A stretch of DNA of 64,000 nucleotides from Pseudomonadota bacterium. Lineage in GTDB: Bacteria > Bdellovibrionota_F > JAHFAK01 > JBDREC01. Where the stretch lies: positions 826 to 64,825 of the forward strand of contig JBDREC010000102.1 of the NCBI GenBank assembly GCA_043820105.1, read 5' to 3'. A program made the translations under genes and the position numbers. Numbering within the stretch: the stretch's first letter is position 1; each line of letters begins with the position of its first letter. Of this stretch, positions 15,683-40,641 are shown piece by piece. Below the pieces are notes generated by a model. It did not search any database. It was not told the origin of the DNA and was given only the letters and a program-made list of their open reading frames with translations.

Positions 15683-15698
15683 TGCAATTAGAGTGCCA
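15683..15698 (-). promoter_or_regulatory. Sigma54 -24/-12 promoter
   Basis: Minus strand TGGCACTCTAATTGCA, near-perfect TGGCAC-N5-TTGCA. Confidence 0.7.
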
Positions 15699-23889: not shown

Positions 23890-23905
23890 TGGCATGCTCT
23901 TTGCA
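23890..23905 (+). promoter_or_regulatory. Sigma54 -24/-12 promoter
   Basis: TGGCATGCTCTTTGCA, GG-N10-GC, about 70 nt upstream of the gene at 23974. Confidence 0.65.
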
Positions 23906-23973: not shown

Positions 23974-24885
23974 ATGAAAGTATCTAGAATTTTAATCTTA
24001 GTTTTAACAATTTTATTCTTAAGCGCTCAATTATTATTCTCAATAAGTATTTGTGAACATAAACTAGGCAAAAGTAGTTTAATCCAGGGAATGGTTAACT
24101 TCTCTGATGCTGAAAAGTTTTTTGCAGGAGATACTTATTTTGGGAATCCAAGTGAAGATATAGAGTGTTACAAACATCCAAAGGTAAACAGGTTAATAAG
24201 CACTTACATGCATGATTTGCATGATGCTGCAAGGTATGCACACAAACACTATTGTGCTTTAGGCAAAGAAAGCTCTTCATTATGTGCTGATGCTAGCAAA
24301 AAGCTTGCAAAGGCCAAAAGATTCGTTAGGGCAATCGAGGATCCAAGGCTTTATAATCAAGAAACTCCAGGTGAATGTAAGGCTATTGCAAAAAAAGCTT
24401 TTGAAACAACAGATAACAATTTTGAATTTAATTCACCTGAAGCACAAAATGATGCTGTAATAGCAACAAATATTAGATCCTTTTTTCAAGATCCTAAAAC
24501 AGAGGAAATGAAAAAAGTAAATCCAGAGTGTTTTGCTGAACACGCAAAACAAATTAAAAAAGCAATTGATTACTTTAATGAAACATATTTAGGTGAAGGA
24601 ATTTTCAATCAGACAGAAGGCATTGCAAAACAAGAATGTGACACATATGGTGAATCTTCAAGAAGATGTATCCACGTTAAAGCTTTAGCAAGTCAATTCG
24701 AGCTTTTTGATAGAATGCTTACAGACTATAGTCAATTTGATTTTATGGCTTCTCTTGCGCATATACAAAACAATAAAGACCAAAGGCTTAGCTCGCTAGA
24801 TATTGGCAAAGCTAACTGTAATACTTGTCCACGTTCAGTAAGTGAGGATTTTAAGGGTAGTTTGAAAAGTGATCTTAGTTTATAG
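23974..24885 (+). CDS. Secreted Cys-rich hypothetical protein
   Basis: Signal peptide; many Cys including internally similar HYC..LGKESSSLC and QECDTYGESSRRC; C-terminal CNTC. Confidence 0.75.
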   Translation: MKVSRILILVLTILFLSAQLLFSISICEHKLGKSSLIQGMVNFSDAEKFFAGDTYFGNPSEDIECYKHPKVNRLISTYMHDLHDAARYAHKHYCALGKESSSLCADASKKLAKAKRFVRAIEDPRLYNQETPGECKAIAKKAFETTDNNFEFNSPEAQNDAVIATNIRSFFQDPKTEEMKKVNPECFAEHAKQIKKAIDYFNETYLGEGIFNQTEGIAKQECDTYGESSRRCIHVKALASQFELFDRMLTDYSQFDFMASLAHIQNNKDQRLSSLDIGKANCNTCPRSVSEDFKGSLKSDLSL

Positions 24886-25976: not shown

Positions 25977-27215
25977 TCAAACCAAGAATGGCAAGATAGA
26001 ATCAGCTGAAGCAAATAATATTTCAATATCATCAATTTTTTTATAATCCCAAACATCCTCTTCTAAAACTAATTGGATATAGTGTTTACAATTTACCTTT
26101 TTTATAAAAGCCAAATTATTATTATCTAATTCATGCTTTTTTAATTTTGCTTCAATAGCAAGCCATGGCAATTTGTCATTTGTGATTAGAAAATCTATTT
26201 CTCTTTTTTCTTTATCTCTTAAATAATGAAGATCAAAACTTCCTTTTCCTGTATCATTCCAAAAGTGAACAGATTTTAACAGATGTGAAGCTAGCATGTT
26301 TTCATACAAGGCACCTTTTTCTTTAAGCTCGGACCAATCCCAAAGATATATTTTTTCTTCCTTTTTCAGAGACCTTGAAATAGACTTATAATAAGGTTTT
26401 AATTCAAAAATAAAATATAGTTCTTTAAGATAATTTAGCCACCTTGAACATGTTTCATGCGCTACTTCTAGATCTTCTCTTAATGACTGAATGCTCATAG
26501 GGTTAGATACTTTGGCTGGCAGCAAGGTCATGAGCATTTCAACTTTGCTTAACTCAGAAATTCTACTTAGATCTCTTAAATCTTCTCTAACAATTTTTTC
26601 ATGTCTGCCTGATCTCCAAATTCTTGCTATTTCTTCAGATCCTTCTAAAAATGGTTCAGGAAAACCACCTAAATTCATTAAATCAATTATAGTTTTAAAA
26701 TATTTTTTGCTTTGATTTTGTGTTGGTATTTTTTCTTTGAAAATTTGCTTTATAATTTCATTTGGTTTTAGCTTTACTGTTTTATGTAATTCTCCAACAG
26801 TAAAAGGGTGCAGCCTGAAATTTAAATATCTCCCCATCAAACTATCGCCACCTTTTTTATAAACATTCAACCTTGCACTTCCAGTGACAATGATTTTGCA
26901 TGGAGATTTTGTGTCAAACAAACCTTTTAGCCTGTTTTTCCATGTTCTTTCTTTGTGAATTTCGTCTAACACAACTATAGATTTATTAATATTTTTTGAA
27001 TCTATGTTATCATAAATTAGTTTAGGATTTTTTGTCCAGATTCTTCTAAAATCAATATCATCCCAATTATTATAAGACCCTAACTTGTTTTCATTTAATA
27101 TCATTTTGGACAACACGGTCTTACCGCATTGTCTTGGTCCACTAATAAAAGCCATTTTATAGCGCTCAAGGGCTAATTTATTTATAAAATCTTTTAAATA
27201 TCTTTGCTTGTACAT
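25977..27215 (-). CDS. AAA+ ATPase (AAA_14 with a DUF4143-type C-terminus)
   Basis: GPRQCGKT, VLDEIH, VTGSA, GGFPEP, YLRDKEKREIDF, IEAK. Confidence 0.9.
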   Translation of the reverse strand: MYKQRYLKDFINKLALERYKMAFISGPRQCGKTVLSKMILNENKLGSYNNWDDIDFRRIWTKNPKLIYDNIDSKNINKSIVVLDEIHKERTWKNRLKGLFDTKSPCKIIVTGSARLNVYKKGGDSLMGRYLNFRLHPFTVGELHKTVKLKPNEIIKQIFKEKIPTQNQSKKYFKTIIDLMNLGGFPEPFLEGSEEIARIWRSGRHEKIVREDLRDLSRISELSKVEMLMTLLPAKVSNPMSIQSLREDLEVAHETCSRWLNYLKELYFIFELKPYYKSISRSLKKEEKIYLWDWSELKEKGALYENMLASHLLKSVHFWNDTGKGSFDLHYLRDKEKREIDFLITNDKLPWLAIEAKLKKHELDNNNLAFIKKVNCKHYIQLVLEEDVWDYKKIDDIEILFASADSILPFLV

Positions 27216-28652: not shown

Positions 28653-29621
28653 TCACTTTTTTAATTCATTAAATATCAAAGAATGACTTTCTTTTATTGA
28701 ATAATATTCGATACCCGTCCAGATAACAATAGTTCCTGAGTCAACATATCCTTGTTGAAATTTCAAGTCCTTGAGAATAGTGTTTCGAATCTCATCTCTG
28801 TCTTTTGTAAACCAAACAATTGCTGGCACCCATAGCTTTATTATTAATTGCTTGCTTGTTTGCGATTCCCCAAAGGCACTTTTTGTTTCAGTGACCTGAA
28901 AATCCATTTCAAGTTTATGCCTAAAATTTAATTTTTGTGATATGAATTCTTCAGGTGATTGTCCCTCTGTCTCGCCTGTTGATTGCTGTGTGGACAGACT
29001 TGCCAAATCACCCATCAGCATTCCCGGAATTACCCTGGCTAAAGTAAAATTTACCAGAAAAGCAAAGATTATAATCATTATTAAAAGAGGTATATACGAT
29101 TGTTTTGAAAGCTTTTTAAATTCAATTTTATTAACTGTACTAAAATCAGTATCTCTTGGTACAATCCATGATTTTGATAAAACATCATGCAGCATTAAAC
29201 CATTTTTATTTAAAAAATGTAGAAAAATACTGTATATAATAAGTGAAATAGGCAATATGTTAATAAAAAGAATTATTGAAAAAGGAAGTATAGATAATAT
29301 CGAACCAAGGCTTCCCCATTTAAAAATAAAAATACACCCAAAGATTAATATTCTAAAAAGTTGTGATTTAAGCGCAAGTTCTTCATTTTGAAAGCTAAAG
29401 ATTTTAAGCTTAAAAATCCTTTTTCCAATGCCTGGCTTATATACATGATCAAGAAGGAAAAAATAGAAGCAGAATAATATTAACTCAATAAAGGCTATCA
29501 ATAAATCCGGAATCTTAAAATACAAACAAGCGTTAAAAACAAAAAATAAAATAACGAAAATTGAATAATCAATCAAAAAAGCCAATAGTCTAACAAAGGA
29601 TGCTGTTTTTATGTCCTTCAT
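28653..29621 (-). CDS. RDD-family membrane protein
   Basis: ASFVRLLAFLID, GKRIFKLKI, R, LHDVLSKSWIV. Confidence 0.8.
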   Translation of the reverse strand: MKDIKTASFVRLLAFLIDYSIFVILFFVFNACLYFKIPDLLIAFIELILFCFYFFLLDHVYKPGIGKRIFKLKIFSFQNEELALKSQLFRILIFGCIFIFKWGSLGSILSILPFSIILFINILPISLIIYSIFLHFLNKNGLMLHDVLSKSWIVPRDTDFSTVNKIEFKKLSKQSYIPLLIMIIIFAFLVNFTLARVIPGMLMGDLASLSTQQSTGETEGQSPEEFISQKLNFRHKLEMDFQVTETKSAFGESQTSKQLIIKLWVPAIVWFTKDRDEIRNTILKDLKFQQGYVDSGTIVIWTGIEYYSIKESHSLIFNELKK

Positions 29622-29693: not shown

Positions 29694-32600
29694 TCACCTC
29701 TTACTCATTACCCACATAAAATCCGGCAGCAAATTGTGCCCTGGATCAAGATCCATTACAACTCCATTAACTGTTAAGAGGAAATTAATTGCTTCCATGA
29801 TTTCAGGGTCTATGTAAAGACCCGCTTGTCCTGCCAGATCAATAAGTAATACTAAGTTATCTGCAGGGGGCAAGGACCAGTCTAGTTGATCAATTCCCTG
29901 CCTTAAAAGCTCATCGTCAAAGCCAGTAGATAAAGAAGCCTCTGAAGCAATTTGCGTTAAGAATCTCTGCAAGGTTTTTAGTTGCCCGGAATTTTTAGCA
30001 CCTGGGGCATATAGAAACATTAATAAGGAAAATAATTTATTTAGTTTATCCTGTGTAATGAAGCCAGTAATTCCCCAGTCAATCCAGCTCAGGCCTGTTT
30101 CGGGTTCGAAAAACACATTTCCCGGATGAGGGTCTTTGTGAAAACTTTTGTCTATCAACAGCATTTTTAAAGCTTGCCGGGCATATAAAATTGCCGCTTC
30201 TTTTCTTTGACCAGGATCATCCAGTTCATTTAATTTTTTACCGGAAGCCGGCAACATAACCAAAACTCTTTGGGTACTCATCTCGTGAAGATATTCAGGA
30301 ACCAGGTATCCTCTTTGTCTAAATTTATCTCCGTTTCTCATTTCTTTTAAAAAACTTAATTGAATTCTATAGTCATTTAACCACCTTCTAATCAAGGACG
30401 GAATATCAATTCCCAGACTAAATCTGCCCATTTTTACTGCTGCTTCAAAGTCGTCTGCGACTTTTGAAAGTGTTTCAATTCCAACCTGCAGGTTTTGATT
30501 ATATTTGGAATCTGGTGCAACTTTTACAAAAACCTCCCTTCCATCAGGAAGCGTTGCTTTGAAAACATCTCCCATTGACGCTGAAGCAATTGGCACATCA
30601 TCCCAGGTGGCAAATAGTAGATGCATTGGTTTTCTAAGCTCCCTTTCTACGGTTCTTTTTATTTCAACACTGCTTGAAGGAGGCACCTGGTCAAACAATC
30701 TTGCAAAAACCTGTCTTTCTGCTGTTGGAATAATGCCATACATTGTTGAAAGAGCCTGTCCTAATTTAGGCAAACCAACTCTTTCGAACAAATAACAAAA
30801 GGTTTCTGCTCTACCTTGCGATTTCTCAATATGTTTCAAATCTTCAATCAATGAAAACAATTGATCCTGTGGCATTTGCTTAAAAAATCTTAGGGCAATA
30901 AATTTTAATTCTTTTGGCAAATCCATCAGGGCATTGGGAAGGTCTAATTTAAGTAAATCAAGAGTTTCATCTCTTTCCTGTTTTCTAAAATTTATTTTTT
31001 TCATTATTTGTCTGGCTTTTGCAATATTAGCTGTTGTCGGAGGAATAAGCTTTAATATGTCATCTTTAAAAACACAGCTATCAATAAAATTATGGGGTGC
31101 TTTTGCTTCCAAATATCTGCTTATTTCAGTAATAAATAAACTCGCATATTTCCCATATTTCAAGGATAAAGATTCCAGTTTAATTGCATCCAAATTAGCA
31201 ATAGTAAGCTCTTTATCACTTAAAGCTTCATCAAATTTTGAAAAATAATTATCAGGATCATTTTTATTTTCATCCAGAATCAGCATACCATAGTCATCTG
31301 GAAGTCTTCCAATTCTTTTCCAGTATTCACAAACCATGCAATAAAGTCTTTTTTCCTGAAGATGATTTGGATTTTTTTCATATCCTTCAATAAGAGCTGA
31401 TAAAACTTTATTGAAAGTACTGGCATATGCCAAACCCTTTGCCGCGATTCTTCTGGTTTCAATTGGATAACGTGAATCATTCACAATATATAAAAACAAT
31501 TCTCTTTTTCTTCTGGCGTCCGGGACATTTGAAGCTTCCAGCACAGAGGCCAAAACCTCTTTTTCAAAATCTCCAAGCTCTCCATGCGCAGAAAGGGTTT
31601 TCTCTGCTAAATCCAGAGCAAAGGCAATGGCAGGAATTTTTAAAAGCCCGGTCAACTGAACTTTTTCTATTGCAGAAAAGATTTTTAATCCCAGCGCAGA
31701 TCCAGAAACAGCCACATTTAATCTGGGGTCTTCGCCTTTAGTCTTTCTTTCCACAAAAGCCTGATAAGTATTAAGTCCCTCCTGCAATTCAGAAGATGGT
31801 TTAGCTGCTCTTTCTATCTCATTATTTACAAATGCTGTATAAACATTAAATATATTATTTTCTGAAAGATCAGGGTAAGCAGAAGTTAGACCACCTATGG
31901 CTAGTCTGATTTTCTCCCAGGCAGAAGTTGGATCATCCAATCCTCTTCTAACCATTACCGGATTCCATTTTCCAACGGGCATTGTTAAATCAACGCTGAC
32001 CTTTCTTGATGGAAAAACATCAGCAAGTGCTACCTGATAATCACTGTCTTTTGAAACCCTTCCTAATTTTTCCTCATTGCTTTCATTCTTAATTTCAGGG
32101 GAAACCCTGTCAATATAATGTTCAATTCTATAAGCAAGGTTTAAAATTCTTCCCCTGATATCCAGAGGTAATTTAGCGCTGCCAATTCTGTCTATGGCAT
32201 ATTTAGCTCTTGCAAAAATTAAGCTTTCAGTTTTTGCATAAATTGAAATTATTTCCAAAGTATCTCTTGTAAATATCGCAGTATCCATCCAGTCAAATAA
32301 AGCTATCTGTTCTCTGATGTCCAGGCCAATAGCCTCTTTCTTTACTTTGGGTAAAACTTTATCAAACAGCTCATAAAGCAGATTATCTTTTTCTTCATTT
32401 GTCAGGTTAGCAGCATTTACTATCTGAATAAAAAGCGTTACTCCTTCCCTGAATTGAAAGGAGGAAGGATTAAATTTAGCGATATGTTCAGATGCCAAAT
32501 GTAATAATTCATTTGCTGCCTGTCTGAAAGCTCTGTTAAGTGCAAATTCCTTAACAAACATTAACATCTCTGTAGGAGTAATTCCAGCTCTTCTAAGCTC

Positions 32601-35600
32601 AACCATTGTTTTATATTCTGAAATTATTTCCTCTAATTTGGAAATTCTATCCGCTTCTTTAGGTAAGGCAAAAAATGCGATAGTAAATAAGGCTGATTGT
32701 ATAGCCTCATTAAATAGTGTAAATATAGCTGGCAAAGATCCTCCCTGCCTACTCTCAATACTGCTATCCAGCATTGTCTGTGCAATATCCAGATAACCTT
32801 GCGTTGCAGCCATTTTCGAGGCTTCAACAATTAATCTCGCGATTACCCATATTGCAGTATTCTTAATCTTTTGGTTTAAATCAGAAAGCTCATCAGTACC
32901 AATCTCTGATAAGGCTAATTTAAATTCCTCATTCCACCTCAAAAACACAATCGGTGGTATTGCCTTTTCCGAATTCAGTTTATGCATCATAATTTCATAG
33001 TGTAATTGTCTAAGCATTTGGGCATAAGATGGTACTGCCAAGCCCTGTTCAATAAAGGCATTCTGAGAGCTGGGAAAAGTTACTACTGAATCAGGAAGAG
33101 GAAATGGCCCATCTAACCATATAAAAGTAGGCATATCTGAAGCTATTGTTTGATTATAAGTATTTGTATCTTTAAATGGGTGTTGTTTCGAGGGATTTTC
33201 CCACAGATTATACAACTGTCTATGATATTCCAAAGCTGAGTATAAACCTGGCAGATACCCTATTTCAGAATCATAATCATCGGCAACGGGAACAGATCTC
33301 CACCAGTCTTTATCATAGGGGGCATTAGAATGCAAAGGATCCTGCCCATAATTTATTGCGCCATATTTCGCAGCTTGTCCTGGAAGAGGCAATCTTAAGC
33401 CTCCTAATCTTGCCTGTAATAAAGCTGCTAAAATAGCAGGTGTAGTTGGGCTAGACCCCCATTTTTTCGATAAATTATAAGCTGCATCTGCCAATATGCC
33501 TTCCTCGTCATAGGCCAGTATTGTTATCAAAAAAGCTTCCAGGGCCTTTGGATCACCTTTATTAATTTCTGAATGATAAACTTTATATAAATACTTGTAA
33601 TATTTTTTTTGATTATATTTTCTAAACTTTGTAATAACTTTAAGAATAAATTTTTTAATTTCAGCTTTTGGAATATTACCTTTTACATAACTATCCTGCA
33701 AGGCTTCTGTTAATATCCTTAAGCCTAAATTTGTCCTTTGAATGCTTTTTTCTTTTTCTAAATATTCCTCATTATTTACTACAGCAATAGGAGTTAAGGG
33801 AAGTTGAAATAATTCAAACTGGGAAACGGAAATTCTGCCAAAATGATAAAGCATTTTTTCAAGATTTCGTTCCAGTCTTGCTCTTTCAAAATAAAGCAAA
33901 TCACTAACAACAATCTTGCTTCTTTCGATTTCTCCGCCAATCCTGTCAACTTTGGGAATATAGGCTAAATTCCTTTGTATAACTATAGCAATATTTTTAA
34001 TTAAATCTTCATAATACGTTTTTTCTTTTCCACTGGCTTGTCTTGCTATAAGTATGGTCATTCGGTAAAAGGCTAAAAGACCATTTGGATCACTCCAATT
34101 AATGTCTTTTGCAATACCCGTTGCCTTTTGAAGGGCTTCTTCAAATTCAAGCTTATATTTTTCATATTGCCTTCTTCCGGCTGAAAGAATTTTTACTTTG
34201 TTTTGGGTTGCCTCCTGCTTTCCCAAAAAAGAGGTGCTTTCTACATCCTTATTTCCGCTTATCAAATCTTTATACTCATTTACCCTGGACATTATTCCGG
34301 GAATATCTACTGACGGGGTAGCACCACTTCTCAATAATGTCCCAGTTAAGGCTGCCATATTTGCGGAGCTTGGTTCGTCAATAGCTTTTTTTGCCTGTGT
34401 CATTAATAAAGCAAGAGGGGAATCTGTTTTAATTTGTACTCCATGCTCGGCAATAACTGCTTCTACTGAAGGGTCTGCTAGTAAAGCAGGATTAGCTCTA
34501 GCTAAAGCTGCTAATTGAAGTAATTTTCCTTTATTATAATTCCTGGTGTGGTTGGCTCCCAGGTAAATTCTGCTTCTTATATAACCTGATATTCCTTCTT
34601 TATTTATTATGTCCAGAATTTTTTCAAAAAATTCCACTTCATCGGGAGCAAGCCAATCTTTTGGTATTCCAATGGCTATTAAATCCCTGTAGAGCAAAGC
34701 CGCTCCATAACTGGCCTGGGCTTCTTCCTGATAGCGGGTATCTAATAAATGAAAAAGGATGGCTTCAAAAGACGCAGCCCCTGAATAATCCGAAATCTCT
34801 TTATAAGGGAGAGCAGCGACTTCTCTGTGTCTTTCATTAATTGGCATAGCGTGAACGCCAAGTTCATGTGCCAGGGTGAAAACAGATGCATTTCGTCTTA
34901 ATCCAATTTCATCACTAAGTTCATTTCTTGTGTCTGTATATTTTCCTCTGCGTGACCAGGATGATTTGAGGTTAAAGCTTATTGGAAATGCATTTTCCTT
35001 ATCTTCTATTTCTGCTCCTCTTTTTTCTACCAGTTCCTTCCATTTCTTTATAACTCTTTGCCATTCAGGTGAAGCATGCTCTATGAGTCTTATCGCCAGA
35101 GCTAATTTTCCCTCATTTATAATTCCTGTTCTAAATAGATCCTTAAACTCCTGTGCATCAAAAGGAGGTAATATTTCATCTTGGCCGGGAATGGTATCTG
35201 GATCCATTGTAAAATGGGCTGCCTCAAGCCCTGACAATCCAGCTGTATTTTTTCTAAATTCCAATTGCAGATATCTGCTTTCATCATTTTCCAAAACATT
35301 CTCATCAAAACGAAAGCTGCTTATTTTTAAAGGACTTTCATAATATACTCTTATATCACCACTGCGAATCACATATATTCTAAATCCGCTAATATTAGAG
35401 TATTCGGTCAAAAGATCTTTTGCGATGTCCAGTACTTTAGCAAGCATTCTTTTTTTCCAGTTTCTCATGGCCTGTATTTGCCCGAAATCATTGAAGTCTG
35501 AAATATACTCGGGATCATATCCTGCAAATTCCACAGATTGTTCGATAACTAAAGGCACAGTAAGCGGAATCCCTGCTTCTTTTTTAAGCAAAGAGGATGC

Positions 35601-38261
35601 CAATTCAAAATTAGCCTTAACTTTTTTATAAATCTGCTGATTTTTATCATCAGCTCTCATGACTCTCCATCTGATGCCATCCTGACCCAGGGCTAGTTCC
35701 AATTCATGAGCCGGAACCATGGGAGTATTAAATTCAAGATGTTTTTCATAATGTTCATATTTCTCTTCAAAACCAAACAAGATTACATCACCAAAGCTCA
35801 ATTTCATTGGTGTTCTTAAGCCAATAAATTTCATTGGCGTTCTTCTACGACTTGGCTTGCTTATACTTCCATCAGAGTGCTTGATGGCTAAACTTACTTT
35901 TGAAGAAATTGGGGCCATGGTCCAATACCCTGGTAATGCAGACGGCTTTTTCCCGCCCTCTTCGTCCATTATTGGTTCAAGCTGCCATACAAACTGGATA
36001 TCTGCTGGCGTTTCAGCGGAGGGTTTTCTGACTAACATTATTTTTTCTTCAGTCACAATCCCGTAAACAGATGTTCCTGGCTTAAAATATGCATCCTTTA
36101 ATTTTGTTTTTATCCTTTCATCAAGCTGGATTTCTTTTTCTTCTGATACCTTGACCGCTGCAACTCCTTCAAACAACCAGTCTTCAAGCTGCTGTTTATC
36201 CATATTCAATGCAAGTGTAAACATAGAATCAAGCAAGGCATAAACAGAAACAAGCAGTTCTTCAGGTACATTTTCTATAATAATCTCTCTTATTAATTTT
36301 ATTTGATCAAATTCCAGATAAATTTTTAAACTCGCCCTTTTTCCATCCAAACCATATCCAAAAATTTCATGAACTCTGGGAGTATTTGGATTTAACACTG
36401 CATCAGCAATAAAGGTTTTAGCATCTTTTATAGATATTTCAGGTAAGCCCGGATGAATATGAGCAGAAGATAAAACAAGATCAGCTGCGGATTCTGCTTC
36501 ATCTGAAACAGCTAATAAGGCATAATCAGATTGACTTGCCCCACCTTCTAAAAAAGAAACTTCACCAGTATCGTCTTTTCTAACTGAGTATTCATGGCCC
36601 GTCCGTTCGTGATGTTCATAAAGTTTCTCAATATCATCATTTCCCAGCAGCAACGACTGAACCTGGAGATCTTCAAAACGATTATCGTCATCAAAATGCT
36701 CCTTATTGTTAGCTGCAAAGGGATCAAAGGTCTCAGCCGGATCCTGCGTTAATTCCTGATACGCTCTTTGTCTTTCCGCATTTGGCAAATTGAGATTCTG
36801 AGGCCTGGCAAGTGGAATGCTTGCAAATATATCACGACCAGCAGCAATTGTTGCCTGTGGCTCCTGGATTGGGGACTGCTCAGGAGAAACAGGTGCTCGC
36901 GGAGCCTCTGGTGAAATTGGCGAGTATTTCCCTTTTGGCAAATTGAGATTTCTGCCTCTATCCAGAGTAACTTCCATTATTATTTGTGGTTCTGGCCTGG
37001 GTTTCGGGGTCTGTCTGAGCAGTTCAGTTCTGCCGGGAATTTCTTCGTTTAAAAAAGGGTCCGCTGGTTTTTCTTTTAATAAGGTATCGGCCTCTACAGA
37101 TTGTATAGGGGCCCTGGAGGCAATTGGTTTCGGGACTTCACTGCCACCTTCTGTTAAGCCTTCGATAATATCAATGGTCGCGGGCATAGCTTCAGGTGCC
37201 TGCATGGTGCTTCCCGGAATTTCTGTTTTCGGAATTTCAAGCAAGGTTATTCGGTTTCTGGAGGCAATTTCAAGAGCTGCTGGAGCTAATTCCTGCGGAA
37301 TAGGAAGTGGCGAAGAAAATGTTTTTAAACCCGGATCCCAGATTAAATCCATAGGCTGCCTGATTGCAAGAGCATTGATTTCTGCTGGACTTCTCGCTGC
37401 GCTGGCGAAATTTAAAGATCTAAAAAATGAATACGCGCTTTTTAGGGCTCTTTCTCCTCTTGGAACTAAAATCAGGGCTCCTAAAAATTCACCGCTATCC
37501 ATTCCAAGTTCTTCAAGTATTCTATTGGTTTCAAGGTCAGCATCAGCCAGACCAAGTCTTACACTATCAATTATTATATCTAGTCCATTTTTAGCGGCAA
37601 TAAAGATACAAGCTATTCCAAGAGCATCAAGAGCAGCCATTACAATGGGCCTGGTTGGCGGACAAATAAAAAGAATAAGGGCTCCTGCAATTAATGCTTT
37701 TACTCTTAAAGAAGAAAAATCAAAAACTTGCAAAAATCCACGGGATAATCTTTGCAGACCACTGGCTGTTTCTTCATCCAGTCCATTTGTGAAAAAATCA
37801 TACGCTGTTAAGTAATCAGCTCCTTCCATTTCATCATGCAATATTCCAATTGTAACAGACCCCCCTCCAAGTTTTTCCAATCTTTGAATCTCTGTGTCGC
37901 CTAAACGTCTTTGGACTTCAATTTTCAGAGCTTTTTCAAAACTTTCATGTAAATCAAATTCATGAACTATATACATTACCAGAAAAACAACTTCCTCTTC
38001 AGTTCCACCAAGCGGCAGTTCCAAAGTTGCTGCAAGCAAGGTATCAGCCAAAACAAATACATTATCAAAAGAAACTAAAGAAGAAGGTTTTATATAATCA
38101 GGATTTGTTTGAGAAGAAACATACTCACCATCATCCAAAATTACATCTGTTGGGCTTTGATCATTGCTTTCGTATGGAAATATATTTTGAAAGAATATTA
38201 ATGAAAATACGATGACAAAATAAAAACATTTTTTAGTTAAATTTACTTCAAGATAAAACAT
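29694..38261 (-). CDS. Giant (2855 aa) secreted multidomain protein with JAB-like and HExxxH motifs and a C-terminal ABC1/UbiB atypical kinase domain
   Basis: Uninterrupted ORF; signal peptide; SAHIHPGLPEISIKD; LAHELGVH; KLGQALST, ASASMGDVFKATL.DG..VFVKV, FHKDPHPGN, IDWG. Confidence 0.85.
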   Translation of the reverse strand: MFYLEVNLTKKCFYFVIVFSLIFFQNIFPYESNDQSPTDVILDDGEYVSSQTNPDYIKPSSLVSFDNVFVLADTLLAATLELPLGGTEEEVVFLVMYIVHEFDLHESFEKALKIEVQRRLGDTEIQRLEKLGGGSVTIGILHDEMEGADYLTAYDFFTNGLDEETASGLQRLSRGFLQVFDFSSLRVKALIAGALILFICPPTRPIVMAALDALGIACIFIAAKNGLDIIIDSVRLGLADADLETNRILEELGMDSGEFLGALILVPRGERALKSAYSFFRSLNFASAARSPAEINALAIRQPMDLIWDPGLKTFSSPLPIPQELAPAALEIASRNRITLLEIPKTEIPGSTMQAPEAMPATIDIIEGLTEGGSEVPKPIASRAPIQSVEADTLLKEKPADPFLNEEIPGRTELLRQTPKPRPEPQIIMEVTLDRGRNLNLPKGKYSPISPEAPRAPVSPEQSPIQEPQATIAAGRDIFASIPLARPQNLNLPNAERQRAYQELTQDPAETFDPFAANNKEHFDDDNRFEDLQVQSLLLGNDDIEKLYEHHERTGHEYSVRKDDTGEVSFLEGGASQSDYALLAVSDEAESAADLVLSSAHIHPGLPEISIKDAKTFIADAVLNPNTPRVHEIFGYGLDGKRASLKIYLEFDQIKLIREIIIENVPEELLVSVYALLDSMFTLALNMDKQQLEDWLFEGVAAVKVSEEKEIQLDERIKTKLKDAYFKPGTSVYGIVTEEKIMLVRKPSAETPADIQFVWQLEPIMDEEGGKKPSALPGYWTMAPISSKVSLAIKHSDGSISKPSRRRTPMKFIGLRTPMKLSFGDVILFGFEEKYEHYEKHLEFNTPMVPAHELELALGQDGIRWRVMRADDKNQQIYKKVKANFELASSLLKKEAGIPLTVPLVIEQSVEFAGYDPEYISDFNDFGQIQAMRNWKKRMLAKVLDIAKDLLTEYSNISGFRIYVIRSGDIRVYYESPLKISSFRFDENVLENDESRYLQLEFRKNTAGLSGLEAAHFTMDPDTIPGQDEILPPFDAQEFKDLFRTGIINEGKLALAIRLIEHASPEWQRVIKKWKELVEKRGAEIEDKENAFPISFNLKSSWSRRGKYTDTRNELSDEIGLRRNASVFTLAHELGVHAMPINERHREVAALPYKEISDYSGAASFEAILFHLLDTRYQEEAQASYGAALLYRDLIAIGIPKDWLAPDEVEFFEKILDIINKEGISGYIRSRIYLGANHTRNYNKGKLLQLAALARANPALLADPSVEAVIAEHGVQIKTDSPLALLMTQAKKAIDEPSSANMAALTGTLLRSGATPSVDIPGIMSRVNEYKDLISGNKDVESTSFLGKQEATQNKVKILSAGRRQYEKYKLEFEEALQKATGIAKDINWSDPNGLLAFYRMTILIARQASGKEKTYYEDLIKNIAIVIQRNLAYIPKVDRIGGEIERSKIVVSDLLYFERARLERNLEKMLYHFGRISVSQFELFQLPLTPIAVVNNEEYLEKEKSIQRTNLGLRILTEALQDSYVKGNIPKAEIKKFILKVITKFRKYNQKKYYKYLYKVYHSEINKGDPKALEAFLITILAYDEEGILADAAYNLSKKWGSSPTTPAILAALLQARLGGLRLPLPGQAAKYGAINYGQDPLHSNAPYDKDWWRSVPVADDYDSEIGYLPGLYSALEYHRQLYNLWENPSKQHPFKDTNTYNQTIASDMPTFIWLDGPFPLPDSVVTFPSSQNAFIEQGLAVPSYAQMLRQLHYEIMMHKLNSEKAIPPIVFLRWNEEFKLALSEIGTDELSDLNQKIKNTAIWVIARLIVEASKMAATQGYLDIAQTMLDSSIESRQGGSLPAIFTLFNEAIQSALFTIAFFALPKEADRISKLEEIISEYKTMVELRRAGITPTEMLMFVKEFALNRAFRQAANELLHLASEHIAKFNPSSFQFREGVTLFIQIVNAANLTNEEKDNLLYELFDKVLPKVKKEAIGLDIREQIALFDWMDTAIFTRDTLEIISIYAKTESLIFARAKYAIDRIGSAKLPLDIRGRILNLAYRIEHYIDRVSPEIKNESNEEKLGRVSKDSDYQVALADVFPSRKVSVDLTMPVGKWNPVMVRRGLDDPTSAWEKIRLAIGGLTSAYPDLSENNIFNVYTAFVNNEIERAAKPSSELQEGLNTYQAFVERKTKGEDPRLNVAVSGSALGLKIFSAIEKVQLTGLLKIPAIAFALDLAEKTLSAHGELGDFEKEVLASVLEASNVPDARRKRELFLYIVNDSRYPIETRRIAAKGLAYASTFNKVLSALIEGYEKNPNHLQEKRLYCMVCEYWKRIGRLPDDYGMLILDENKNDPDNYFSKFDEALSDKELTIANLDAIKLESLSLKYGKYASLFITEISRYLEAKAPHNFIDSCVFKDDILKLIPPTTANIAKARQIMKKINFRKQERDETLDLLKLDLPNALMDLPKELKFIALRFFKQMPQDQLFSLIEDLKHIEKSQGRAETFCYLFERVGLPKLGQALSTMYGIIPTAERQVFARLFDQVPPSSSVEIKRTVERELRKPMHLLFATWDDVPIASASMGDVFKATLPDGREVFVKVAPDSKYNQNLQVGIETLSKVADDFEAAVKMGRFSLGIDIPSLIRRWLNDYRIQLSFLKEMRNGDKFRQRGYLVPEYLHEMSTQRVLVMLPASGKKLNELDDPGQRKEAAILYARQALKMLLIDKSFHKDPHPGNVFFEPETGLSWIDWGITGFITQDKLNKLFSLLMFLYAPGAKNSGQLKTLQRFLTQIASEASLSTGFDDELLRQGIDQLDWSLPPADNLVLLIDLAGQAGLYIDPEIMEAINFLLTVNGVVMDLDPGHNLLPDFMWVMSKR

Positions 38262-38313: not shown

Positions 38314-38328
38314 GCATTTTTTATGCCA
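38314..38328 (-). promoter_or_regulatory. Sigma54 -24/-12 promoter upstream of the giant gene
   Basis: Minus strand TGGCATAAAAAATGC, GG-N10-GC; a second GG-N10-GC (38300-38314) abuts it. Confidence 0.55.
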
Positions 38329-40625: not shown

Positions 40626-40641
40626 AGCAAGAATTATGCCA
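40626..40641 (-). promoter_or_regulatory. Sigma54 -24/-12 promoter
   Basis: Minus strand TGGCATAATTCTTGCT upstream of the GHKL gene. Confidence 0.65.

Follow-up and report, generated by a model that had tools for sequence, protein, structure and literature searches.

A predicted giant protein ending in an ABC1/UbiB-type kinase domain behind a zincin-like segment represents a rare, undescribed family

The stretch of DNA considered here (the window) comprises 64,000 nucleotides of contig JBDREC010000102.1, positions 826 to 64,825 of assembly GCA_043820105.1, from an uncultured groundwater bacterium of the lineage Bdellovibrionota_F whose 3.81-Mb genome (113 contigs) is 92.9% complete. On its minus strand lies a gene for a protein of 2855 residues, referred to below as the giant protein, which tops the length of the 44 open reading frames (ORFs) of at least 1200 residues in this genome and is encoded by a stop-free run of 8568 bases in DNA of 32% G+C. 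Judged by its sequence, it belongs to a rare and undescribed family, in which known superfamilies, an ABC1/UbiB-type atypical kinase domain at the C-terminus and a zincin-like metallopeptidase domain well ahead of it, stand in a conserved combination that has likewise not been described. The gene and its parts are listed here from the N-terminus onward; every motif named in the initial annotation of this DNA was found where it had been placed.

29694..38261, minus strand: the giant ORF, 2855 residues (P0001), a single intact open frame
38172..38228, minus strand: N-terminal hydrophobic segment, residues 12-30, with KK before it and an acidic stretch after it, signal-anchor-like
37392..38066, minus strand: N-module, residues 66-290, a helical part and a hydrophobic hairpin, common to proteins P0016 and P0019
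37587-37703, minus strand: the hydrophobic hairpin, residues 187-225 (segments 187-203 and 205-225), from hydrophobicity
36702..37394, minus strand: Pro-rich linker, residues 290-520
36162..36683, minus strand: JAB/MPN-like domain, residues 527-700, with E557, H601, H603, S610 and D613, from a model and relatives
36588-36599 and 36447-36467, minus strand: its motifs GHEY (from residue 555) and SAHIHPG (from residue 599)
35199..35927, minus strand: region X, residues 779-1021, colinear with residues 237-535 of protein P0007
34362..35198, minus strand: zincin-like metallopeptidase domain, residues 1022-1300, with H1132, E1133 and H1137 (HExxxH) and E1180, from a model and alignment
34851-34868 and 34713-34727, minus strand: its motifs HELGVH (from residue 1132) and EEAQA (from residue 1179)
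30822..34361, minus strand: family-conserved middle region, residues 1301-2480, containing no known domain and kept in P0006, P0008, P0010, P0011 and P0013
29697..30821, minus strand: ABC1/UbiB-type atypical kinase domain, residues 2481-2855 (Pfam PF03109 match 2522-2755), with motifs starting at 2563 (MGDVFKA), 2708 (HKDPHPGN) and 2727 (IDWG)

The C-terminal domain is certainly of the ABC1/UbiB type as sequence assignments go, with its catalytic motifs complete, and the full motif set claimed for it in the initial annotation is borne out. The PF03109 match reaches E 6e-33 and 114.3 bits, against a gathering cut-off of 22.9, and each of the characteristic ABC1 features (KxGQ, an Ala-rich loop, the catalytic Lys, HxDxHPGN and a metal-binding Asp) has its counterpart in K2499-L-G-Q2502, the A2559-S-A-S2562 loop, K2580, H2708/D2710/H2712/N2715 and D2728, respectively. 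In alignment, KLGQ, the ASAS loop, K2580, HKDPHPGN and IDWG pair with those of solved ABC1 proteins (5yjz, 7cy2 and COQ8B), and the catalytic motif residues are invariant in six of six family members. The likeness to the UbiB/ABC1/COQ8 (ADCK) kinases (PF03109; PDB 5yjz, 7cy2 and 4ped) thus comprises the C-terminal 375 residues with all motifs; known members, however, have a few hundred residues, whereas here the domain ends proteins of 1800-2855 residues and is preceded by about 1200 conserved residues and, ahead of these, the zincin-like domain. By this measure the giant protein is not a UbiB orthologue, because the UbiB equivalog model TIGR01982 scores it at 119.8 bits against a cut-off of 487.55. 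Two ordinary ABC1 genes, of 588 and 443 residues, are found elsewhere in the genome. Separately, at least eight ORFs of 1949-1993 residues, on contigs C10, C27, C49, C64, C82, C88 and C90, look like a distinct paralogous family of giant proteins; three of them (on C10, C27 and C88) have weak ABC1/kinase-like matches, and their G+C is 0.28-0.30 in seven and 0.366 in the ORF on C82.

An exhaustive phmmer search with residues 101-1300 against 1.84 billion representatives returned 15 proteins at E <=0.001, the query included. Nine clusters of relatives (P0006-P0014) match residues 1022-1300 with E-values from 1.5e-43 to 4.9e-17, and the ABC1 domain stands at the end of all five of the longest (P0006, P0008, P0010, P0011 and P0013, 1797-2309 residues). 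A single BLASTP alignment, 1909 columns long and 31% identical, joins P0006 to the giant protein from residue 1024 on; P0010 shows 36% identity over residues 1722-2851 and 30% from residue 1042; and P0007 is colinear with residues 779-1298. Because P0006, P0010, P0007 and other relatives align there, residues 1022-2855 are assigned as the conserved core of the family, made up of the zincin-like domain, about 1200 further residues and the ABC1 domain. On the same alignments the giant protein carries about 1020 extra N-terminal residues beyond this core and is the longest known member. The ten clusters that were inspected are all singletons or pairs of metagenomic origin, one being labelled as a metagenome-assembled genome of Deltaproteobacteria; P0008 is carried by a 98-kb contig. 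Word-based protein searches returned ABC1-domain matches only, and no paralogue of residues 1-2400 was found in the bacterium's own genome.

For residues 1022-1300, a zincin-like metallopeptidase fold is supported by alignment and modelling, zinc peptidases being the best, though weak, structural matches. The initial annotation had drawn attention to a metallopeptidase-like HELGVH followed by EEAQA, and four motif residues within them, H1132, E1133, H1137 and E1180, proved invariant in all ten sequences of alignment A1. Its HExxxH motif is indeed present but is not the family norm, which is the canonical HExxH of eight of the nine relatives (seven with HELTH, one with HEIVH); the giant protein and the relative P0014 (HELIGH) are variants with a one-residue insertion. 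The AlphaFold model of the domain, with a predicted local distance difference test score (pLDDT) of 80.2 and a predicted template-modelling score (pTM) of 0.74, opens with helices, which a three-stranded sheet follows; the HExxxH motif sits on a further helix and E1180 on a long one (model residues 144-175). A structural search of this model against representatives (VIA) placed oligoendopeptidase F on top (Z 6.0, root-mean-square deviation (rmsd) 4.6, 145 residues aligned), and about 36 of the 50 best matches are, by their titles, zinc metallopeptidases of many families. Since a VIA Z-score below 8 may reflect a common arrangement, the case for a zincin rests jointly on the fold, the invariant ligands and their placement in the secondary structure. 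Foldseek gave no hit for the model at E <=0.001 in the PDB and BFVD, and the sequence profile of the segment had astacin (E 0.047) as its sole match in the PDB.

Passages of one study of polyvalent proteins describe a zincin core of three strands, an HExxH helix and a next helix bearing a Glu, report zincins with HEXXXH on a bent helix, and propose that giant polypeptides are processed autoproteolytically by zincin domains (Iyer et al., 2017; PMC5512222). The giant protein resembles the zincin (MPTase) domains set out in those passages in its core, in the HEXXXH variant and in the placement of the domain inside a giant multi-enzyme chain; ABC1 and UbiB occur 0 times in PMC5512222. The middle region that separates the two conserved domains of the core had no match outside the family in a segment-wise Pfam search, in a "shorter" protein search with residues 1300-2490, in the ESM Atlas with residues 1300-2480 or with the core profile against the PDB, where the whole-core profile found ABC1 chains and, weakly, astacin only. 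In the ESM Atlas, residues 520-1300 reached scores of at most 0.82. A DnaJ match at residues 1550-1594 (E 0.08) was discarded, as it has no HPD motif and the segment is unconserved in P0006.

Ahead of the core, residues 527-700 probably adopt a JAB-like fold, to go by the model; that this domain is also an active peptidase is rated as less probable than the fold itself. The segment matches the N-termini of P0015 (E 1.8e-8) and of P0017 and P0020 (E 1.6e-5), in which E557, H601, S610 and D613 are kept and H603 is replaced by N in P0015. These three proteins, of 2130-2175 residues, have a midasin-like layout: after the same unannotated JAB-like N-terminus come two AAA_5 domains and, at the C-terminus, a vWA domain. 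The canonical JAB motif is E...HxH-x7-S-xx-D, and nine of nine Prok-JAB sequences from other genomes have the x7 spacing, as against HxH-x6-S-xx-D in the giant protein and, identically, in P0017 and P0020. In the AlphaFold model, a strand ends with HIH and the helix after it starts with S..D. VIA ranked Pyrococcus JAMM1 (5ld9_A) first (Z 6.3, rmsd 4.0, 107 residues aligned), and eight of the ten best matches are MPN/JAB proteins, with cytidine deaminases next; bacterial Ubl-deubiquitinase, Rpn11, Npl4, Cap3, BRCC36 and RadC are among the matches. The top Foldseek rows are MPN proteins as well (from E 2.1e-3, at probability 0.72, to E 2e-2). The JAB/MPN-type segment proposed in the initial annotation is thus supported by conserved motif residues and by the model. 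In comparison with JAB/MPN+ (JAMM) peptidases (5ld9, Cap3 9ild, Rpn11 and RadC 2qlc), the same E...HxH...S..D occupies strand end, loop and helix start, but the loop is one residue shorter and the second His is not kept in P0015. A "longer" protein search with the JAB-like alignment (A2) had no match; it covered proteins of 378-2000 residues only, with the known relatives of 2130-2175 residues outside its range.

The N-terminal hydrophobic segment has an n-region with KK, a hydrophobic core of 13-19 residues and five acidic residues after it. It looks like a signal anchor, because no signal-peptidase site was seen by eye; of the signal peptide first proposed, the n-region and core stand, but no pair of small residues at -3 and -1 is evident on inspection by eye. 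The hydrophobic hairpin and the Pro-rich linker were both as described, the latter with 14.7% Pro in residues 290-520 against 5.3% protein-wide, and the linker had no homologues in protein and Pfam searches. BLASTP showed no internal repeats in the giant protein. In library searches the N-module matched P0016 (379 residues, E 2.8e-6) and P0019 (441 residues, E 1.8e-4; alignment A4), which begin a few residues ahead of the conserved block and keep the Gly/Ala-rich hydrophobic hairpin of 41-53 residues. After the N-module, the C-termini of the giant protein, P0016 and P0019 differ from one another. Proteins sharing the first ~300 residues but ending otherwise, whose search the initial annotation had recommended, therefore exist in other organisms (P0016 and P0019), but none was found in the bacterium's own genome. 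The C-terminus of P0016 is Tad4-like (anti-Thoeris family PF25186, 27.8 bits against a cut-off of 25), and this protein could act either as a membrane effector that binds a signal or in phage counter-defence. Hydrophobic segments also occur upstream of the zincin-like domain in three of the nine relatives (P0006, P0007 and P0010), those of P0010 holding a Pro-Pro turn as in the giant protein.

The giant gene had been described by eye as richer in G+C than its flanks and as having a sigma-54 site, and both descriptions agree with the computed values. Its G+C is 0.375 against 0.321 for the genome, at the 95.8th percentile of 1662 ORFs of at least 300 residues, and its third-position G+C (GC3) is at the 93.6th percentile of the same set. 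A gene for RpoN (rpoN) was found in the genome, and the window contains six matches to the pattern TGGCAY-N5-WTGC against 0.56 expected, one of them directly upstream of the gene:

38314..38328, minus strand: sigma-54-type promoter-like site TGGCAT-N5-ATGC, TGGCATAAAAAATGC, 53 nucleotides 5' of the ATG

The ATG at 38261 is preceded at 10 nucleotides by GGAG, the best ribosome-binding context among the candidate starts; the in-frame alternatives (TTG at codons 42, 71, 75 and 80, ATG at codon 96) have a context that is no better, and starts at codon 71 or later would truncate the conserved N-module. A second and better sigma-54-like site, TGGCATCCTCTTTGC, lies within the giant gene at 35588-35602 on the minus strand, about 390 nucleotides upstream of Met1019, which stands three residues ahead of the family core; such a site could give rise to a core-only isoform like the shorter relatives. 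The further sites in the window are at 23890-23904 (plus strand), 40627-40641, 2978-2992 and 15684-15698 (all minus strand), and gene starts follow about 70 nucleotides downstream of the first two, at 23974 (plus strand) and 40558 (minus strand). A gene for an RDD-family membrane protein of 322 residues (28653-29621, minus strand) follows the giant gene in the same orientation, starting 72 nucleotides past it, and the two may share a transcript; no counterpart was found beside the relatives in the contexts compared.

The family is present in one of four genomes of the phylum (the four species-level genomes in the collection, a sparse sampling) and, within the order of G041 (a genome that carries another family copy), in one of 13. 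Scans of contigs located one locus among genome contigs and two among metagenome contigs; these counts are lower bounds, the two peptide patterns used not being fully matched by the giant protein itself. In G041, a complete metagenome-assembled genome (CP064976.1, locus L017, 9731-14252), the copy is divided into ORFs of 844, 484 and 181 residues in at least three frames with in-frame TGA stops, and is read as a pseudogene or the product of sequencing errors. Locus L018 contains the intact P0010, whereas L019 holds family remnants only, of 288 and 456 residues, so that copies are decayed or broken in two of the four contexts examined, across which host G+C ranges from 0.32 to 0.575. The neighbours in the window, L017 and L019 are ordinary metabolic genes, and none is common to the four contexts except a gene for an AAA_14/DUF4143 protein in two. 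In the window this ATPase gene (25977-27215, minus strand) matches the PADLOC candidate defence family PDC-S01 (E 1e-52); DUF4143 has 23 matches in the genome, and one such gene also lies near the L019 remnant. An association of DUF4143/PDC-S01 genes with giant ORFs was considered and set aside (6 of 44 within 5 kb against 3.0 expected, P ~0.07). No relatives were found in viral contigs (alignments A1, A2 and A4), and there were no structural or mobile-element hits in PHROGs or Pfam among the window neighbours, nor any PHROGs hit for the giant protein. A full-text literature search found neither UbiB together with polymorphic toxins nor a fusion of UbiB with a metallopeptidase, although the domain catalogues on the FTP site of the authors of the polyvalent-protein study could list such an architecture.

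The initial annotation had inferred that the giant protein, taken to be exported, is an effector that ends up inside prey or host cells. Put in full, the protein would be a Sec-exported effector with several warheads, whose hairpin inserts in the target membrane and whose peptidase and ABC1-kinase payloads enter the prey or host cell. Such a role is not supported by the analysis but is a serious rival, second in likelihood, to the reading favoured below; it can draw on the N-terminal hydrophobic segment with its positive n-region and acidic downstream flank, on the start codon with the best ribosome-binding context, and on the N-module and hairpin that recur on P0016 and P0019 ahead of unrelated C-termini, a modular layout typical of effectors. 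The multi-enzyme composition, zincin-like domain included, recalls polyvalent proteins, the family is rare, sporadic and decaying with elevated G+C in the giant gene, and the four secretins of the genome, which also encodes a PilT-like ATPase, make a type II-like route conceivable. Against delivery, no marker of FHIPEP (FlhA/SctV, of the type III secretion system or flagellum), VirB4 (type IV), TssC (type VI) or a contractile sheath was found in the 92.9%-complete genome, and a signal-like N-terminus is present in none of the nine relatives and neither of the two N-module proteins. Pfam recognises no known trafficking domain in the giant protein, the genome holds no paralogue or cassette, no conserved immunity-like gene lies beside or downstream of the family genes across the four contexts, and neither a phage signal nor a plasmid context was found. 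Polymorphic toxin systems combine a known N-terminal trafficking domain with a toxin at the C-terminus, an immunity gene next to it and spare cassettes. The giant protein shares with polymorphic toxins and polyvalent proteins an N-module with varying C-termini, several enzyme domains per chain and a sporadic spread; it differs from the former in that no trafficking domain, immunity gene, cassettes or injection apparatus was found, and from the polyvalent proteins of phages and conjugative elements in that no mobile-element context was found. The searched literature contained no ABC1 effector, and the one paper with ABC1/UbiB, effector and secretion-system terms counts ABC1 among non-effector kinases in the passage concerned. 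Somewhat less likely again is the boldest form of this idea, in which the giant protein would found a family of giant effectors with a UbiB/ABC1 kinase as the weapon, exported by Sec, entering a foreign membrane through its Gly/Ala-rich hairpin module and cutting itself with the zincin- and JAB-like domains, so that a module driven by ATP is set free and upsets how the prey or host cell handles quinones or lipids; if true, the use of an ABC1 kinase as a weapon would be a role never reported for that family.

UbiB-family proteins work at membranes on lipid-like ligands, and a housekeeping function, in which the giant protein would be a membrane-tethered scaffold for lipid or isoprenoid-quinone homeostasis with a COQ8/UbiB-like ATPase and structural or regulatory peptidase-like domains, is in keeping with this, with the full conservation of the ABC1 active site across the family, and with a core of ~1800 residues held at 31-36% identity among hosts of such different G+C. 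The hydrophobic segments in several members and the ordinary metabolic neighbours point the same way. It is nevertheless improbable, given that neither the three nearest genomes nor 12 of the 13 genomes of the G041 order have the family, that half of the contexts hold broken copies, that two ordinary ABC1 genes are already present, and that TIGR01982 scores far below its cut-off. That the long frame is a chimera put together by misassembly from unrelated genes, or else a dead gene, is very improbable: although the junctions within residues 1-780 (N-module, linker and JAB-like domain) are matched by no single relative, and no public contig mapped on the gene crosses a domain junction, many stretches being uncovered, the 8568 bases are stop-free in DNA of 32% G+C, P0007 is colinear over 779-1298 and P0006 from 1024 onward, and none of the three enzyme domains has lost its catalytic residues. 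Short contigs of identical sequence from four runs in three studies, two labelled groundwater metagenome, lie along the whole gene at a similar low depth. Odd joints in this mapping, where long contigs touch the giant gene by ~20 bases, were taken as chance.

The reading favoured here, and held tentatively, is that the giant protein is a membrane-tethered, self-processing, accessory multi-enzyme protein of the conflict type. It would sit in the producer's own cytoplasmic membrane, a placement suggested by its three hydrophobic segments and by those upstream of the zincin-like domain in three of nine relatives. The zincin-like domain, and here the JAB-like domain as well, would cut the polypeptide or a bound partner so that modules are freed or activated, and the ABC1 module would spend ATP at the membrane, where it would either act on a ligand resembling a lipid or quinone or work as an ATP-dependent switch. 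The gene would be an accessory, horizontally moving one of the conflict type and not that of a housekeeping enzyme: the two ordinary ABC1 paralogues argue for its accessory nature, and a rare, sporadic, decaying and G+C-atypical gene with modular domain sharing fits this better than housekeeping. Injection into another cell would lie outside this proposal, because the injection-system and sheath markers and the signal-like N-termini of relatives were not found.

Several observations weigh against membrane-tethered self-processing in the producer. By the positive-inside rule, the charges around residues 12-30 (KK before, five acidic residues after) predict translocation of the part that follows, and envelope-spanning proteins such as TonB and TolA typically have a Pro-rich spacer behind their membrane anchor; the dependence of a domain on ATP speaks for the cytoplasm or a target cell, while the N-terminal charges and the spacer speak for the envelope. 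Cleavage, metal binding and ATPase activity are predictions from sequence and models, and both peptidase folds have modest Z-scores (6.0 and 6.3, below 8). In the segment-wise search, carried to E 10, no Pfam peptidase model matched the zincin-like segment, and no phage or conjugative context was found; in both respects it differs from the zincins of polyvalent proteins. Since the giant protein deviates at 8 of 24 near-invariant zincin columns, four charged positions among them, its zincin-like domain may be altered or inactive. For the JAB-like domain, the model was built from a three-sequence alignment and has a mean pLDDT of 62 (73-90 in its core, residues 81-170 of the model), the Prok-JAB hidden Markov model had 0 matches in the genome, segment-wise Pfam searches at E up to 10 had none, and hhalign, run with alignment A2 against the nine Prok-JAB sequences, aligned 22 columns at a P of only 0.06. 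No known defence family in PADLOC matches the giant protein.

ABC1/UbiB kinases are ancient, near-universal and poorly understood, and all that are known are small, membrane-associated and involved in the handling of quinones and lipids. An intact ABC1 domain that ends a chain of 1800-2855 residues behind a metallopeptidase-like domain, in a family with a conflict-like distribution, suggests a second and unexplored use of this fold. The hairpin module and the JAB-like domain would tie the giant protein to small hairpin proteins, one of them Tad4-like, and to midasin-like AAA-vWA giants, and the family as a whole may serve as a natural construct for probing what the ABC1 domain binds.

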